Below are positions 25,930 to 30,208 of a stretch of DNA of 64,000 bases, one piece after another. The DNA is from an uncultured delta proteobacterium (GTDB lineage: Bacteria > Myxococcota_A > Polyangia > Haliangiales > Haliangiaceae), in the NCBI GenBank assembly GCA_963848295.1, contig CAWKDB010000010.1, positions 2,816,001 through 2,880,000 of the forward strand, read 5' to 3'. Positions within the stretch are counted from its first letter, which is position 1. Every line of letters begins with the position of its first letter. The notes beneath the pieces are model-generated. The model had not been told where the DNA came from and made no database searches. It saw nothing but the letters and a program-made list of their open reading frames with translations. Position numbers and translations under genes: made by a program.

Positions 25930-26002
25930 GGGGTCATAGCTCAGCTGGGAGAGCGCTAGAATCGCACTCTAGAGGTCAGGGGTTCGATCCCCCTTGGCTC
26001 CA
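25930..26002 (+). tRNA. tRNA-Ala (anticodon CGC), CCA not encoded
   Basis: Cloverleaf: acceptor GGGGTCA/TGGCTCC with G3:U70, D-arm TAGCTCAGCTGGGAGAGC, anticodon stem CTAGA-ATCGCAC-TCTAG, T-loop GGTTCGATCC; TTGACA at 25887 upstream. Confidence 0.96.
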
Positions 26003-26012
26003 CGGAAAACCG

Positions 26013-26050
26013 AAGAGGTCTCGCAGCGATGCGAGGCCTTCTTTGTTTTC
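26013..26050 (+). terminator. Intrinsic terminator, repeated after every tRNA-3' copy
   Basis: GAAGAGGTCTCGCA-GCGA-TGCGAGGCCTTC-TTTGTTTT hairpin plus U tract; also at about 27140, 28371 and 29325. Confidence 0.85.
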
Positions 26051-26280
26051 GGCGTGCGGCAAGCGTTCTAGAGGCTGCTCTCGCACGCGTCGTCATTCCG
26101 TTCGCTTACGCAGTCCCGACCCTACGCAAACCGCTTCCAATCGTTCCGCAAAAACATTCTAGAGGTCCCGTCGTCACGTCGTCGCGTCCTGAACCCTTCT
26201 GGCTGCGTCGTTCCCGCGTGATAGCGTTCATTGTGGCAGCCGACGCTTCGAAAGTATCTCCAGCCGAGATCGCTGCACTC

Positions 26281-26445
26281 ATGGTGCACCTCGATCCAGA
26301 GGTCCGCGACGCCATCGCCGATGTCGATCGAACGCTCATCGCGCTTGCGCTCGCGCAATCCCCCTGGGACCGGCTGAGGTCGGCATCTCGAATGGCGCAA
26401 GCCCTCGTCAGGATCCGGGATGGTGCCGCACCCCAAGGTCACTGA
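26281..26445 (+). CDS. Small partner protein upstream of the nucleotidyltransferase
   Basis: MVHLDPEVRDAIADVDRTLIALALAQSPWDRLRSA; overlaps the MNT gene; start uncertain (GTG alternatives at about 26218-26233). Confidence 0.6.
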   Translation: MVHLDPEVRDAIADVDRTLIALALAQSPWDRLRSASRMAQALVRIRDGAAPQGH

Positions 26446-26920
26446 CCTTCCCGCGCTGCTCGCGAAGCTGTGCGACGCCGGGATCGAGTTCATCATCGTC
26501 GGTGGCGCCGCCTGCGTGATCCAAGGCGCGCCGATCACGACCAACGATCTCGATATCGTCCATCAGAGGACGCCGGAGAACATCGAGCGGCTTCTCGCAG
26601 TCTTGCTCGAGCTCGATGCAACGATGCGCTACGACTTTGCGAACAGACGACTCCGCCCAACGACAGAGCTGTTAGCAGGCAGAGGACACCTGAACCTTTC
26701 CACCTCGCTCGGTCCGCTCGATCCGCTTTGCGAGCTCGACGGCCTGGGGTTCGACGAGTTGTTGGCCCATAGCCAGTCGGTGATCGATGAGGGGCGATTG
26801 CTTCGCGTACTGGACCTGCCGACGCTTATCACTGTGAAGACAAAGGCCGGACGACCGAAGGATCGACTCGTGCTCCCGATCCTGATCGCGACCCTCGAGG
26901 AGCGCGATAAGGCGAAGTGA
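26420..26920 (+). CDS. Nucleotidyltransferase (MNT/AbiEii-like), putative TA component
   Basis: FIIVGGAA...TTNDLDI catalytic motif; LITVKTKAGRPKD C-terminal motif. Confidence 0.85.
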   Translation: MVPHPKVTDLPALLAKLCDAGIEFIIVGGAACVIQGAPITTNDLDIVHQRTPENIERLLAVLLELDATMRYDFANRRLRPTTELLAGRGHLNLSTSLGPLDPLCELDGLGFDELLAHSQSVIDEGRLLRVLDLPTLITVKTKAGRPKDRLVLPILIATLEERDKAK

Positions 26921-27084
26921 TTGACGGAACCCGGCGGTCGCGCGTGTTGCCCGGCGCGACGCCGACTCAACGCCAACGACCGCACGCAGTTGTTGGCCGT
27001 CACCGTTCCGCAAATTCGTCGACGGAGATCCGCGCACTGCGAAACGTTTCCCACTGGAACCTCGCGAGATTCCTCGGCGCGCCC

Positions 27085-27179
27085 AGAATCGCACTCTAGA
27101 GGTCAGGGGTTCGATCCCCCTTGGCTCCACGGAAAACCGAAGAGGTCTCGCAGCGATGCGAGGCCTTCTTTCGTTTCGG
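27085..27179 (+). repeat. tRNA-Ala 3' fragment + terminator, copy 2 (att-like junction)
   Basis: AGAATCGCACTCTAGAGGTCAGGGGTTCGATCCCCCTTGGCTCCA identical to 25958-26002. Confidence 0.97.
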
Positions 27180-27351
27180 ACGCACGCGAATCGTTCCGCA
27201 AGCCGTTCTAGAGGTCTGCTCTCGCACGCAGTGTCATTCCGTTCGCTTACGCAATTCCGGCCCACCCGAAGCGCTTCCAATCGTTCCGCAAAGCATTCTA
27301 GAGGTCCCGTCGATCGGTCGGTCACGTCGCGCGTCCGAATGCCACGCAGCG

Positions 27352-27568
27352 CTATCGAAAGCGCCAAGGCTCGGGACGAAGACGTGCCAGCGAACGCGCG
27401 ACGGCCGCCGGGTCGATCTCGACGCGCTCCTTCATCAATCGGAACAAGGCCTCGGCCACCACAGACGCGATCGCGTGGATGCCCGCAACACATCGAGCAG
27501 ATCGAGCCACCGAGCGCAGGGCAACTGCGCTTGCCTTTGCGTTGTTTGCAGAAGCTGCATACCGCCAC
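27352..27568 (-). pseudogene. Truncated Cys-rich zinc-binding protein
   Basis: MAVCSFCKQRKGKRSCPALGGSICSMCCG then loss of frame. Confidence 0.45.
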
Positions 27569-27660
27569 CGCGACCTTTCGTAGCCCGCTAGCATCTGCGA
27601 CGCAATGCCTGGCAGTCGTTCCGCAGGATCCTCGACCAAGACTCGGCGTTGGGGACCTTG

Positions 27661-27963
27661 CTACACGTCGGGGCTGCGGCCCGCGAGCGCATTCCAGACG
27701 AGCAACACCTCGATGTCACCAGCTACTTCGTCAACTCGGTAGTAGACGTGGTTGCGCGTCTTCGGCATGAGGATTCGCCAAACGATCCGGCCGCCACGCG
27801 CTGCGTACTGCTGACGCTCCGCGTCCGCACCACCGCGCAGCTTGGTCACGATCGCGGACAGCTCTTCGACGAATACGCCCGGAGCCTTTTCACGATGCTG
27901 CTCCCACCACGTTCGCTTCTCTCGGACCGAGAGCCGAGCCTCCGGCGTGAAGCGAACTCTCAC
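27661..27963 (-). CDS. RelE/ParE family toxin
   Basis: MRVRFTPEAR...WRILMPKTRNHVYYRVD...IEVLLVWNA; 100 aa; GTGA-coupled to the upstream antitoxin. Confidence 0.85.
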   Translation of the reverse strand: MRVRFTPEARLSVREKRTWWEQHREKAPGVFVEELSAIVTKLRGGADAERQQYAARGGRIVWRILMPKTRNHVYYRVDEVAGDIEVLLVWNALAGRSPDV

Positions 27964-28190
27964 TGATGACGAAGCTCGTCCAGAACGTCGTCAGCGTCCA
28001 CCAACTCGCCAGCATCTGCCTGTGCGGCGCTTCGTTCGAGCGCTTGTTCGAGCGCCGCGCGCTCATCGTTGCTCATGTTGTCAGCCGCCGCGTCGTAGAG
28101 GTACACGCGAACCTCAGCGCCGTCGGGTAGATCGACCGGCTCGTCAACGACGATCTTTCCGTTCACAACATGAGCTCGGAGCGCGGTCAC
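27960..28190 (-). CDS. Antitoxin (AF2212/DUF104-like N-terminus, acidic C-terminus)
   Basis: GTG start: TALRAHVVNGKIVVDEPVDLPDGAEVRV...DADDVLDELR. Confidence 0.8.
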   Translation of the reverse strand: MTALRAHVVNGKIVVDEPVDLPDGAEVRVYLYDAAADNMSNDERAALEQALERSAAQADAGELVDADDVLDELRHQ

Positions 28191-28315
28191 GAGATCAAGA
28201 TACACGAGCCGAGTCGGTTCGCGTCCGTTCCGCAACTTCTCCCAGAACATCCAAGACGTTGCACCGATTGCGGAATGTTCTGCTCCTCAATTCCGCGGGA
28301 TTCCTCGGCGCGCCG

Positions 28316-28410
28316 AGAATCGCACTCTAGAGGTCAGGGGTTCGATCCCCCTTGGCTCCACGGAAAACCGAAGAGGTCTCGCAGCGATGCGAGGCCTTCT
28401 TTGTTTTCGG
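28316..28410 (+). repeat. tRNA-Ala 3' fragment + terminator, copy 3
   Basis: Identical 45-nt core plus terminator. Confidence 0.97.
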
Positions 28411-28429
28411 ATCGTTCCCCAGCTTCGCA

Positions 28430-28810
28430 TCACGGCCGAACGAGCTCCACATCGAGGTCGGCCGCGCGAGCAAGCGGCGCTAGGTCCTCTGGATCAGACG
28501 TGATGATTCGATCGCCATCGCTCGCCAACAGGACCAGCGCAGCGTCAATGACATCATCTTGTTTTGCTCGGGCCAACAGCTCGCCAGCTGCGCGGCCGAG
28601 CACCGCATCCAGCCGCCGTATGTCGATCACGTCGAATGCCCGCGCAAGCAGCGCCTGACGGGGCCCCCGCCCGCGCCACGCCTGACCGACGATCCCGCCG
28701 TGAGACAACGGTGCCTCGCGGGACTGCAGAGCTTGCTTTAGACGCTGCCACATCGCGCGATCATTCCGTTCGAGCGCTATCAGCGCACCGGTATCAAAGA
28801 TCAGCCTCAT
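28430..28810 (-). CDS. PIN-domain (VapC-like) toxin
   Basis: LIFDTGALIA, DVIDAALV, IITSDPEDL acidic PIN motifs. Confidence 0.9.
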   Translation of the reverse strand: MRLIFDTGALIALERNDRAMWQRLKQALQSREAPLSHGGIVGQAWRGRGPRQALLARAFDVIDIRRLDAVLGRAAGELLARAKQDDVIDAALVLLASDGDRIITSDPEDLAPLARAADLDVELVRP

Positions 28811-29115
28811 GCCACCTTCGAACGCCGCTTGCTTGTGCGGTTCTTAAGTGGGCCCCGGATCACGTTTGCCTTGCGCCGATCCTCGCGTTCACGTGCCGCG
28901 AGCTCGGATGGTGTGATCTCTCCATACTCAGCCTCATAGCCGGCGAGCAGGTCGGACAGGGCGGCGAGGCGGCGCTCTTTGAGCACATGCTCTGCAACGG
29001 CGAGATTGATCCAAGCACTCAACGAATCCGCCCGACCCGCTGCAATGGCGGCGTTGGCGGCCTCGACCAGGGCGCGGTCAAGGGTGACGGTAACCCGCTC
29101 TTTCGTCTCACTCAT
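28807..29115 (-). CDS. Ribbon-helix-helix antitoxin
   Basis: MSETKERVTVTLDRALVE...SLSAWINLAV...YEAEYGEIT; ATGA-coupled to the PIN gene. Confidence 0.85.
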   Translation of the reverse strand: MSETKERVTVTLDRALVEAANAAIAAGRADSLSAWINLAVAEHVLKERRLAALSDLLAGYEAEYGEITPSELAAREREDRRKANVIRGPLKNRTSKRRSKVA

Positions 29116-29137
29116 ACTATTATCATACCATCGTATG
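29113..29137 (-). promoter_or_regulatory. Leaderless promoter and operator of the VapBC pair
   Basis: Minus strand TGGTATGATAATAGT-ATG; palindrome CATAC-CATC-GTATG and a repeated CATAC. Confidence 0.6.
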
Positions 29138-29269
29138 CGCAACGTCAGGACGCCGATCGAGCCCGGCAAATGCGTTGTCCCACCTAACCGTTCCGCAGAT
29201 TCCTCGTCGGAGACTCGGCGTTGCGGAACGCTCGTGGCCCTCAACCCCGCGGGATCCCTCGGTGCGCCC

Positions 29270-29364
29270 AGAATCGCACTCTAGAGGTCAGGGGTTCGAT
29301 CCCCCTTGGCTCCACCAGGAAACGAAGAGGTCTCGCAGCGATGCGAGGCCTTCTTTCGTTTCGG
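29270..29364 (+). repeat. tRNA-Ala 3' fragment + CCA + terminator, copy 4 (attR-like)
   Basis: Same core, and the only copy followed by CCA (29315-29317). Confidence 0.97.
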
Positions 29365-29437
29365 CCTGGGCGCAAAACCGGGTGCGGAACGATCGCGTCA
29401 GGCAATTAGTCGTTTCGATCTCGGTCCACGAGAAGCC

Positions 29438-30208
29438 CTACCTAGGCTTCTCGTGGGGAAGCTTCCGAGTCGTGAACAGCGCTGCGAACATCGGCGATGC
29501 CTGAAACGCTTTGGCAAGCGCGGCGATGAGAGCAAGAGAGTAGCCGCGGCCTTGAAGCTCGGCCGCGATTTCGGCCAGCGGTCTTTGCTCGATCACGCGC
29601 CGTAGCAGGCGTGCGGCGGGACGATCAAGCGACAGCTGCAGCGGCTCAGCTAAGGCGAGTAACCAGCGCTCGATTTGCGCCGTCGCTCCGCGCTTCGGAT
29701 GGATGCGCTCGATCGCTTCCAGAATCGTTTCTCGATCGCCCGCGTCAGCGAGTAGCGCGAGGAAGGTGCGGTGTTGGCGCTCGCGGACACGACGTCGCAG
29801 CGCGAACAGCTGTGCACGCACTCGAATGAGCGTGATTGCGCGAGCGAGCGCATCACCCGCGTGGCCATGATGACGTCGTACCATGCGGAGGTATGGGGCC
29901 AGTGCACGGTTGTCTTCGTGCTCCGCGGATGCTGCTTCGAGGATCGCCCAGCTCGCGGCCAGACCGGTTGCAATTATCGCCTCAGCGGCACGCAAGCCGC
30001 GACGACGCTCGAGTCGAGCGCACGCCTCGTGGATCCTGACTCGCGCCCGCAGGGTTGCGTCCGGCACTGGCGGCAACGGATCGACAGCGACACCGGGCGG
30101 GTGAAACACCCACTGCGGGGTGAGCGCGGGTAACGTTGGAGTGCGGACAACGAGCGTCACCGGGAGACACTCGCCGAACGTTTCGCGCGAGAGCCTCATC
30201 CGCTTCAC
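29438..30208 (-). CDS. Hypothetical protein, possibly a gene remnant
   Basis: 256-aa helical Arg/Ala/Leu-rich ORF, atypical codon usage, no clear motif. Confidence 0.45.
   Translation of the reverse strand: MKRMRLSRETFGECLPVTLVVRTPTLPALTPQWVFHPPGVAVDPLPPVPDATLRARVRIHEACARLERRRGLRAAEAIIATGLAASWAILEAASAEHEDNRALAPYLRMVRRHHGHAGDALARAITLIRVRAQLFALRRRVRERQHRTFLALLADAGDRETILEAIERIHPKRGATAQIERWLLALAEPLQLSLDRPAARLLRRVIEQRPLAEIAAELQGRGYSLALIAALAKAFQASPMFAALFTTRKLPHEKPR

Follow-up and report, generated by a model that had tools for sequence, protein, structure and literature searches.

The window analysed here, a stretch of 64,000 nucleotides (G000:C10:2816001-2880000) from the genome of an uncultured delta proteobacterium, G000, which is 85% complete, contains a tRNA-Ala(CGC) gene followed by three small integrase-less units. 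Each unit ends in a further copy of the 3' half of the tRNA and its terminator, and each carries a putative toxin-antitoxin (TA) pair. The account that we favour, with somewhat more confidence than doubt, is that the units are non-autonomous cassettes that were integrated in trans by the IntA integrase of a transient helper and were then trimmed and fused, the TA pairs being retained. A lambda-type IntA, carried on prophage-like or satellite-like elements, would target the anticodon loop of tRNA-Ala(CGC) in the genus, and small units that possess both attachment arms and no integrase gene would use the IntA of a visiting helper. Each unit would enter at the restored tRNA and bring a new tRNA 3' half and terminator, older units would be shifted outward, and later deletions would trim or fuse units while TA pairs were preferentially kept. 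Excision as well as integration would occur in trans, the helper would probably have a role in transfer, and toxicity and addiction would account for the retention of the pairs. An earlier note on this DNA had proposed serial site-specific capture of small integrase-less units, a proposal that agrees with the conserved arm sites, the variable number and content of units across relatives, and the TA-rich cargo described below.

The 45-mer from the 3' part of tRNA-Ala(CGC) occurs as four exact matches in direct orientation (25958, 27085, 28316 and 29270), at intervals of 1127, 1231 and 954 bp, just as the earlier note had it. Aligned with the tRNA and its terminator over 95 nt, copy 3 is 100%, copy 2 is 97.9%, and copy 4 is 93% identical, and an identical 11-bp hairpin with a T run follows all four tRNA 3' copies. 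The 45-nt "core" of the earlier note is a real repeat, but the crossover would lie 3 nt inside it, at the anticodon loop, because identity with the tRNA begins exactly at the loop in the fragments of relatives. An Rfam search of the locus matched nothing besides the tRNA. The repeats are as follows.

25930..26003, + strand: tRNA-Ala(CGC), the restored attachment target (ARAGORN; Rfam tRNA, 61.6 bits)
25961..25967, + strand: 7-nt anticodon loop, the presumed crossover (overlap) region, with further copies at 27088-27094, 28319-28325 and 29273-29279
26004..26052, + strand: terminator hairpin that accompanies each tRNA 3' half, with stems at 26015, 27142, 28373 and 29327
27088..27179, + strand: tRNA 3' half and terminator, copy 2 (blastn, alignment)
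28319..28410, + strand: tRNA 3' half and terminator, copy 3 (blastn, alignment)
29273..29365, + strand: tRNA 3' half and terminator, copy 4, diverged, with CCA encoded, the oldest

Beyond these copies, genome-wide blastn revealed only the tRNA-Ala(GGC) paralogue and, on contig C4, a degenerate copy and a remnant of the terminator. The GC fraction drops from about 0.69 to 0.62 across 26-30 kb of the window. The 15 PF00589 matches and the one PF00239 match of G000 all lie elsewhere, outside the window, which confirms the earlier statement that the array and its surroundings are without a recombinase gene. An assembly artefact can be given hardly any weight: although the whole array is spanned by none of the contigs compared, the copies differ and each has its own arm, contigs of run X1 (possibly the source sample) match 26765-27094, 27101-27869 and 28990-29281 without differences, arm-core junctions included, and arrays are found in many relatives.

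The right ends of the units share one design, an inverted pair CGTTCC...GGAAC with the sites 36 or ~46 bp apart, followed by CAA, GAT, a degenerate core-type site and the loop. A right-arm profile trained on 40 ends from relatives only found all three arms in the window, with E values from 2e-12 to 2e-4. Neither these arms nor the left ends below are assigned a strand.

27004..27087: unit 1 right arm, with arm sites inverted to each other at 27004 and 27041 and after them the core-proximal motif (nhmmer E 3.4e-11)
28217..28318: unit 2 right arm, a variant with a spacer 10 bp longer (28226 to 28272; nhmmer E 2e-4)
29181..29272: unit 3 right arm, arm sites at 29189 and 29225 (nhmmer E 1.7e-12)
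27605..27655: internal half right arm, the deletion junction at which two units were fused (nhmmer E 8e-4; repeat family D2)

The left ends fall into classes that were compared over 109 sites, 67 of which fit neither class fully. Type-A left ends feature tandem GGAACG(G/A)TT, presumably the counterpart of the lambda P' arms, and type-B left ends feature an inverted arm site and, after 5-8 nt, TCTAGAGGT. An integrase gene lies behind 15 of the 16 type-A ends, and 25 of the 26 type-B ends are without one. When the opposite strand is read, type-B ends prove to be in-register mirror copies of the right arm, and comparison with shuffled sequences gave p<=0.01 for 16 of the 26 mirrored ends and not for the other 10. 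The core-type site of type-B ends is near-invariant although the spacers diverge; at a guess, this extra site might serve as an accessory site for integrase loading. The bare type-B pattern gave 37 matches over 147 genomes and a reversed control was of similar size, so the pattern is informative only by its position ~105 nt behind tRNA cores. The possibility that a divergent subfamily of integrases ordinarily has type-B ends was rejected, the support for it coming from a single element (in genome G020). The first 213-225 nt of unit 1 agree with those of unit 2 at 87% identity, and the left end of unit 1 contains the core-type motif TCTAGAGG at 26067 and 26158 and the arm-type motif CGTTCC at 26142 and 26209.

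26067..26214: unit 1 left end, doubled and type-B-like, its role presumed (motif map)
27192..27304: unit 2 left end, doubled and type-B-like (motif map)
28413..28418: unit 3 left end, truncated, with a single arm-type site (motif map)

These ends allow a bolder proposal, which is put forward tentatively and could well be wrong. The units would be parasites of phage integrases that consist of attachment sites only, ~1-kb cassettes with a rebuilt left end (the extra core-type site and the mirrored right arm) that capture the integrase of a visitor for themselves, build integron-like TA and immunity arrays at a tRNA, and are missed by island finders.

The cognate integrase was revealed by clustering the open reading frames (ORFs) of the units. 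IntA is a tyrosine integrase of 382-390 aa (PF00589), and the 13 tyrosine recombinases sampled from G000 did not, as queries, recover this cognate integrase of the relatives' arrays. IntA matches are present in 36 of the 91 genomes of the genus, and an intact gene stands beside tRNA-Ala(CGC) or its fragment in about ten (G026, G089, G016, G018, G094, G070, G077, G092, G114 and G001). The 10.8-kb element of G114 is phage-like, with head, baseplate and replication genes; no genes of these kinds were found among the five proteins scanned from the 46.7-kb element of G026. IntA-related integrases lie at tRNA-Ala(CGC) throughout the family, and the close relatives of IntA come from Kofleriaceae or Myxococcota records. 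The one member detected in G000 is a multiply broken copy (C4:316511-317493). The suggestion of an integrase acting in trans holds in so far as the cognate integrase would have to act in this way, but a helper among the intact recombinases of G000 is not supported, the only family member found there being decayed.

Other integrases at these sites were also recorded. G026 and G089 (L055, L100) have an identical IntA protein and left end. Relatives of IntA occupy tRNA-Ala(GGC), tRNA-Gln(CTG) and tRNA-Leu (L056, L117, L116, L122-L124), and the right-arm motif is found in the tRNA-Ala(GGC) elements too. In G013 (L105:2637-4060) an unrelated tyrosine integrase adjoins tRNA-Ala(CGC), and a second family may use the site.

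Throughout the genus tRNA-Ala(CGC) is a hot spot. A 29-nt core pattern was matched in 84 of the 91 genomes and two or more times in 37, in two of which the second match is tRNA-Ala(GGC); these tallies include the unpublished G010 and G075, and no specific claim rests on either. Several relatives have no tRNA fragment within ~17 kb of the tRNA. A survey of 44 complete core-to-core units, three of them from the window and all from loci chosen for having several cores, gave lengths of 514-12,401 bp with a median of ~2.6 kb; the complete integrase-bearing elements of G026 and G114 lie outside this set. IntA has left no trace in 40 of the 44, the three of the window included. TA queries matched 24 of the 44 units and 15 of the 21 units shorter than 2.5 kb, compared with 12 bins in the whole of G000, an enrichment that is overstated because the queries were taken from the same units. 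The units also carry immunity-like, helicase and metabolic genes. The search for cores and arms across relatives that the earlier note had called for yielded a hot spot with variable arrays, and none of the circles that it had proposed to look for was seen in contigs.

If integration takes place at the restored tRNA, the newest unit stands first, and a type-B integrase-less unit is first in eight genomes (G000, G064, G067, G080, G098, G100, G104 and G111). G067 and G111, the flanks of which are 87% identical, have in common a 3.5-kb integrase-less unit at 92%, ahead of which G067 has a further 910-bp unit; the difference is the precise gain or loss of one unit. The nucleotidyltransferase (NTase) module of unit 1 is found at other array positions in G008, G012, G031, G064 and G098. 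In G000 itself, the region C4:293718-321002 (L001, L002) contains an IS21-like element, a type-B RelE cassette, a decayed ~24-kb IntA element and a degenerate core. The RelE cassette has a full type-B end, is 87% identical to the unit 2 module and stands ahead of the decayed IntA element, and the IS21-like copy separates it from any tRNA. The region is a fragment of a tRNA-Ala(CGC) array, detached from the rest. In seven relatives a tRNA fragment features the same replacement of the T-arm region, which breaks the T-stem (L051:14655, L070:10219, L076:10543, L079:13371, L086:5777, L097:3420 and L106:15218). Recent transfer of cassettes between species was considered and is unsupported, since at synonymous sites the cassette genes have diverged at least as far as the flanking genes.

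The position and design of the ends bear on whether the units are instead passive relics, that is, classical cis-mobilizable elements (CIMEs): full integrase-bearing islands that lost their middles, the ends surviving since deletions fall inside the island and the TA pairs since they are hard to lose, with any movement only in cis with an adjoining full element. This explanation is rather unlikely. Deletion products of IntA elements would be expected to have type-A ends, yet 25 integrase-less units are of type B along with only one integrase-bearing element; the near-invariance of the type-B core-type site beside diverging spacers and the newest position of such units in the eight genomes also argue against relics. 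Decay has nevertheless left its marks. The deletion fusion in unit 2 and the broken IntA genes in 4 of the 44 units fit the relic explanation, as does a 1.7-kb unit of G000 between two tRNA-His fragments (C10:3870635-3872434, L164), which comprises a truncated integrase-like ORF and an NTase/HEPN-like pair (by eye) and is an example of the decay route. TA genes are often near the right arm, a full element in G030 has a PIN-like ORF near the integrase (by eye), and the part of the literature consulted describes a three-step decay route (PMC5704250). The earlier note had named a decayed larger island as what would overturn its reading, and this has come about in part, through the unit 2 fusion and the IntA fragments.

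Decay has also been at work in interval 2. Its left part consists of the end that resembles that of unit 1, 30 codons of a Cys-rich gene and the half arm, and unit 2 is a deletion fusion of this part with the RelE cassette. From the gene remnant and the half right arm it follows that at least four units took part. Core-less internal arms like that of unit 2 are also present in relatives, and small size and TA content may partly result from trimming.

Homologous recombination between the direct repeats of 95-140 nt, after an initial integrase event, would add, drop and swap units without an integrase, and is improbable. In 52 of 53 cases a fragment matches the acceptor-stem allele of its host, the likeness of arms is 0.62 inside a genome and 0.45-0.49 across genomes, and the two units of G109 have 885 nt in common at 93% and different TA pairs, all of which speak for it. 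However, the allele match would also follow if a paired acceptor stem is selected for when a unit integrates, and recombination leaves the arm-site pairs with their 10-bp spacing variants and the distinct left-end class unexplained.

Integration in trans by a helper's IntA remains the favoured account, and several observations weigh against it. The sole integrase-bearing element with a type-B motif, that of G020, breaks the separation of the classes, and it is among the 10 type-B ends without a significant mirrored-arm score. The first motifs of units 1 and 2 also fail this score (p 0.6-0.7), together with 8 other type-B ends, that of G020 included. The end classes were defined post hoc on the same sequences, from the loci chosen for several cores. 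No circles or empty sites were seen when sought in assembled contigs, no intact IntA was found in G000 at its 85% completeness, and IntA fragments occur in 4 of the 44 complete units. The fusion origin of unit 2 and a synonymous divergence of cassette genes that approximates that of flanking core genes belong here too. Two joints in X3 (29276 to 27181; 27294 to 26834) were not taken as circles; they lie on single low-depth contigs from other strains.

Membership among integrons, as the earlier term "integron-like" might imply, is unsupported: there is no IntI, there are no attC hairpins, and a terminator heads every unit. A true integron, or an array like a cluster of attC sites lacking integron-integrases (CALIN), is extremely improbable. 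The small units, the TA-rich cargo and the greater likeness of repeats within a genome would suit it. Against this, the best TIGR02249 match in G000 reaches 73.8 bits compared with a cut-off of 265, IntA matches the same model at E 0.015, the arms fold no better than shuffled sequences (median z -0.28; 6 of 44 below -2), and paired attC core motifs (RYYYAAC/GTTRRRY) are absent.

The cargo of the three intervals had been described as three unrelated two-gene modules. Three TA-like pairs are indeed present, but interval 2 also holds the gene remnant and the half right arm. The genes, which lie on both strands, and the ORF downstream are the following.

26233..26445, + strand: 70-aa putative antitoxin, start uncertain, predicted partner of the NTase (conserved in an alignment of 8; complex model)
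26420..26920, + strand: 166-aa nucleotidyltransferase, MenT1/AbiEii-like putative toxin (DUF6036 E 9e-4; profile match to 8AN4, a MenT1 entry, E 0.0018)
27473..27568, - strand: start-proximal remnant, ~30 codons long, of a Cys-rich gene of >400 aa (tblastn E 2e-12; long form in the G070 and G069 arrays)
27661..27963, - strand: RelE/ParE-fold putative toxin, 100 aa (pLDDT 90.5; Foldseek best E 1e-3)
27960..28190, - strand: 76-aa putative antitoxin of the RelE/ParE gene (upstream partner in homologous modules; role presumed)
28430..28810, - strand: PIN-like putative toxin, 126 aa (Atlas look-alike 0.98)
28807..29115, - strand: ribbon-helix-helix (RHH)/ParD-like putative antitoxin, 102 aa (Foldseek ParD matches E 0.6-0.8, weak)
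29386..30208, - strand: arm-type site (29386) and orphan 256-aa ORF (29438-30208), a probable remnant of a further unit

The arrangement is that of type II TA systems, with two-gene operons in which the antitoxin gene is first and the frames overlap, and with toxins of known fold (RelE/ParE; PIN as a lead; NTase weakly). None of the six cargo proteins matched a family at cut-off level in Pfam, NCBIfam, PADLOC or PDB sequences, and the PADLOC search for defence systems gave nothing relevant. The Pfam matches of the unit 1 NTase are weak and below cut-off, and weak DUF6036 matches recur in 9 of 10 homologues. T41, D43, D45, K140 and D148 are invariant in the NTase alignment. Homologues show 87-92% amino acid identity (lower, 81%, for G098) at 31-52% divergence of four-fold sites, and this conservation indicates purifying selection. 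A model of the complex of the 70-aa protein and the NTase gave an ipSAE of 0.87 compared with 0.01 for the best of 3 controls, with at least 97% agreement of contacts between runs and a partner pLDDT of 81; the mark for this score was attained by 116 of 157 solved and 2 of 215 mismatched pairs. The model supports binding of the predicted antitoxin to the NTase, and the passing score may reflect likeness to the known complex MenAT1. For the 100-aa protein of unit 2 all listed Foldseek matches belong to the RelE/ParE family, its identity resting on the fold, and family searches with the 76-aa protein gave no match. The full-length form of the remnant gene is estimated at ~450 aa. The PIN call for unit 3 is a lead, with PIN on 11% of Atlas cluster members and no Pfam match at cut-off, and a promoter-like site upstream of the 102-aa gene (29148-29119) lies inside unit 3. 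The orphan ORF has no Pfam or NCBIfam match and no homologue among the fetched loci.

Repeats at other tRNA genes of G000 were also recorded. Behind tRNA-SeC lies a 790-bp integrase-less unit with a 64-nt 3' duplication (C10:112742-113592, L163), the cargo of which is a MazF/PemK-like ORF (read by eye) and a 74-aa partner; the same module is also found ~0.5 kb from tRNA-SeC in G090. Behind tRNA-Leu(CAA) and tRNA-Leu(TAG) (C10:1111630-1112711 and 2152523-2153225) there are five 188-bp and four 140-bp tandem repeats, respectively, in which the 3' end of the tRNA is included.

Should the units move in trans, a transient phage integrase together with a tRNA would do the work of a gene-capture array with no integron involved, one that is missed by standard island finders, which require an integrase and 2 kb. 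If the units are only relics, they provide a clean case of TA pairs outlasting the decay of islands. IntA, its two natural end designs and the many natural substrates make the question of relic or hitchhiker testable for integrase-less tRNA islands.

The array resembles a cassette array in its working, yet it is not an integron. Sedentary chromosomal integrons and the pdif modules of Acinetobacter are small TA-rich modules moved by a recombinase encoded elsewhere; unlike these, the array is without IntI and attC, has, at a tRNA, a two-arm site of lambda type, and would depend on a helper that is not a fixed enzyme of the host. CIMEs are similar in being integrase-less units that keep attL and attR and are stacked at one target beside related integrase-bearing elements, and as far as the portions consulted go their definition is that of products of decay that move in cis (PMC5704250). 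The units in the window have no genes for integration or transfer, and by sequence they keep an attL and an attR like those of a related element, their right arms and left arm sites being common to IntA elements. In contrast to CIMEs, many array units are ~1 kb, with a left-end design of their own and the newest position without an adjoining full element. The anticodon-centred tandem tRNA/tmRNA islands of Islander, in the sections available, feature a tyrosine integrase, a restored tRNA, a displaced 3' fragment and an anticodon-loop crossover, and candidates that lack an integrase or are shorter than 2 kb are rejected there (PMC4383910). The window has the tRNA and the displaced 3' fragment in the same orientation that Islander looks for, and units of 0.95-1.23 kb with no integrase inside, so they would escape its catalogue. 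The ssrA islands of Dehalococcoides, as described in the excerpts consulted, likewise form a genus-wide stack at one RNA gene, 15 of them without integration modules, but depend on a serine recombinase and a T-loop site and carry reductive-dehalogenase cargo (PMC3146451). For the cargo, MenAT1 of Mycobacterium tuberculosis offers an NTase toxin fold and a directly binding antitoxin of 68-70 aa, according to the part of the report seen (PMC10435456), and binding is likewise predicted for unit 1, the NTase of which is however only a weak profile match (E 0.0018). A literature search, in which subscription journals were mostly uncovered and supplements excluded, gave no account of the locus or of a trans-mobilised class with such ends. 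The closest known kinds are CIMEs and tandem accretion, and what is new here is the identification of the cognate integrase, a left-end class found almost solely on integrase-less units, and the load of TA genes.

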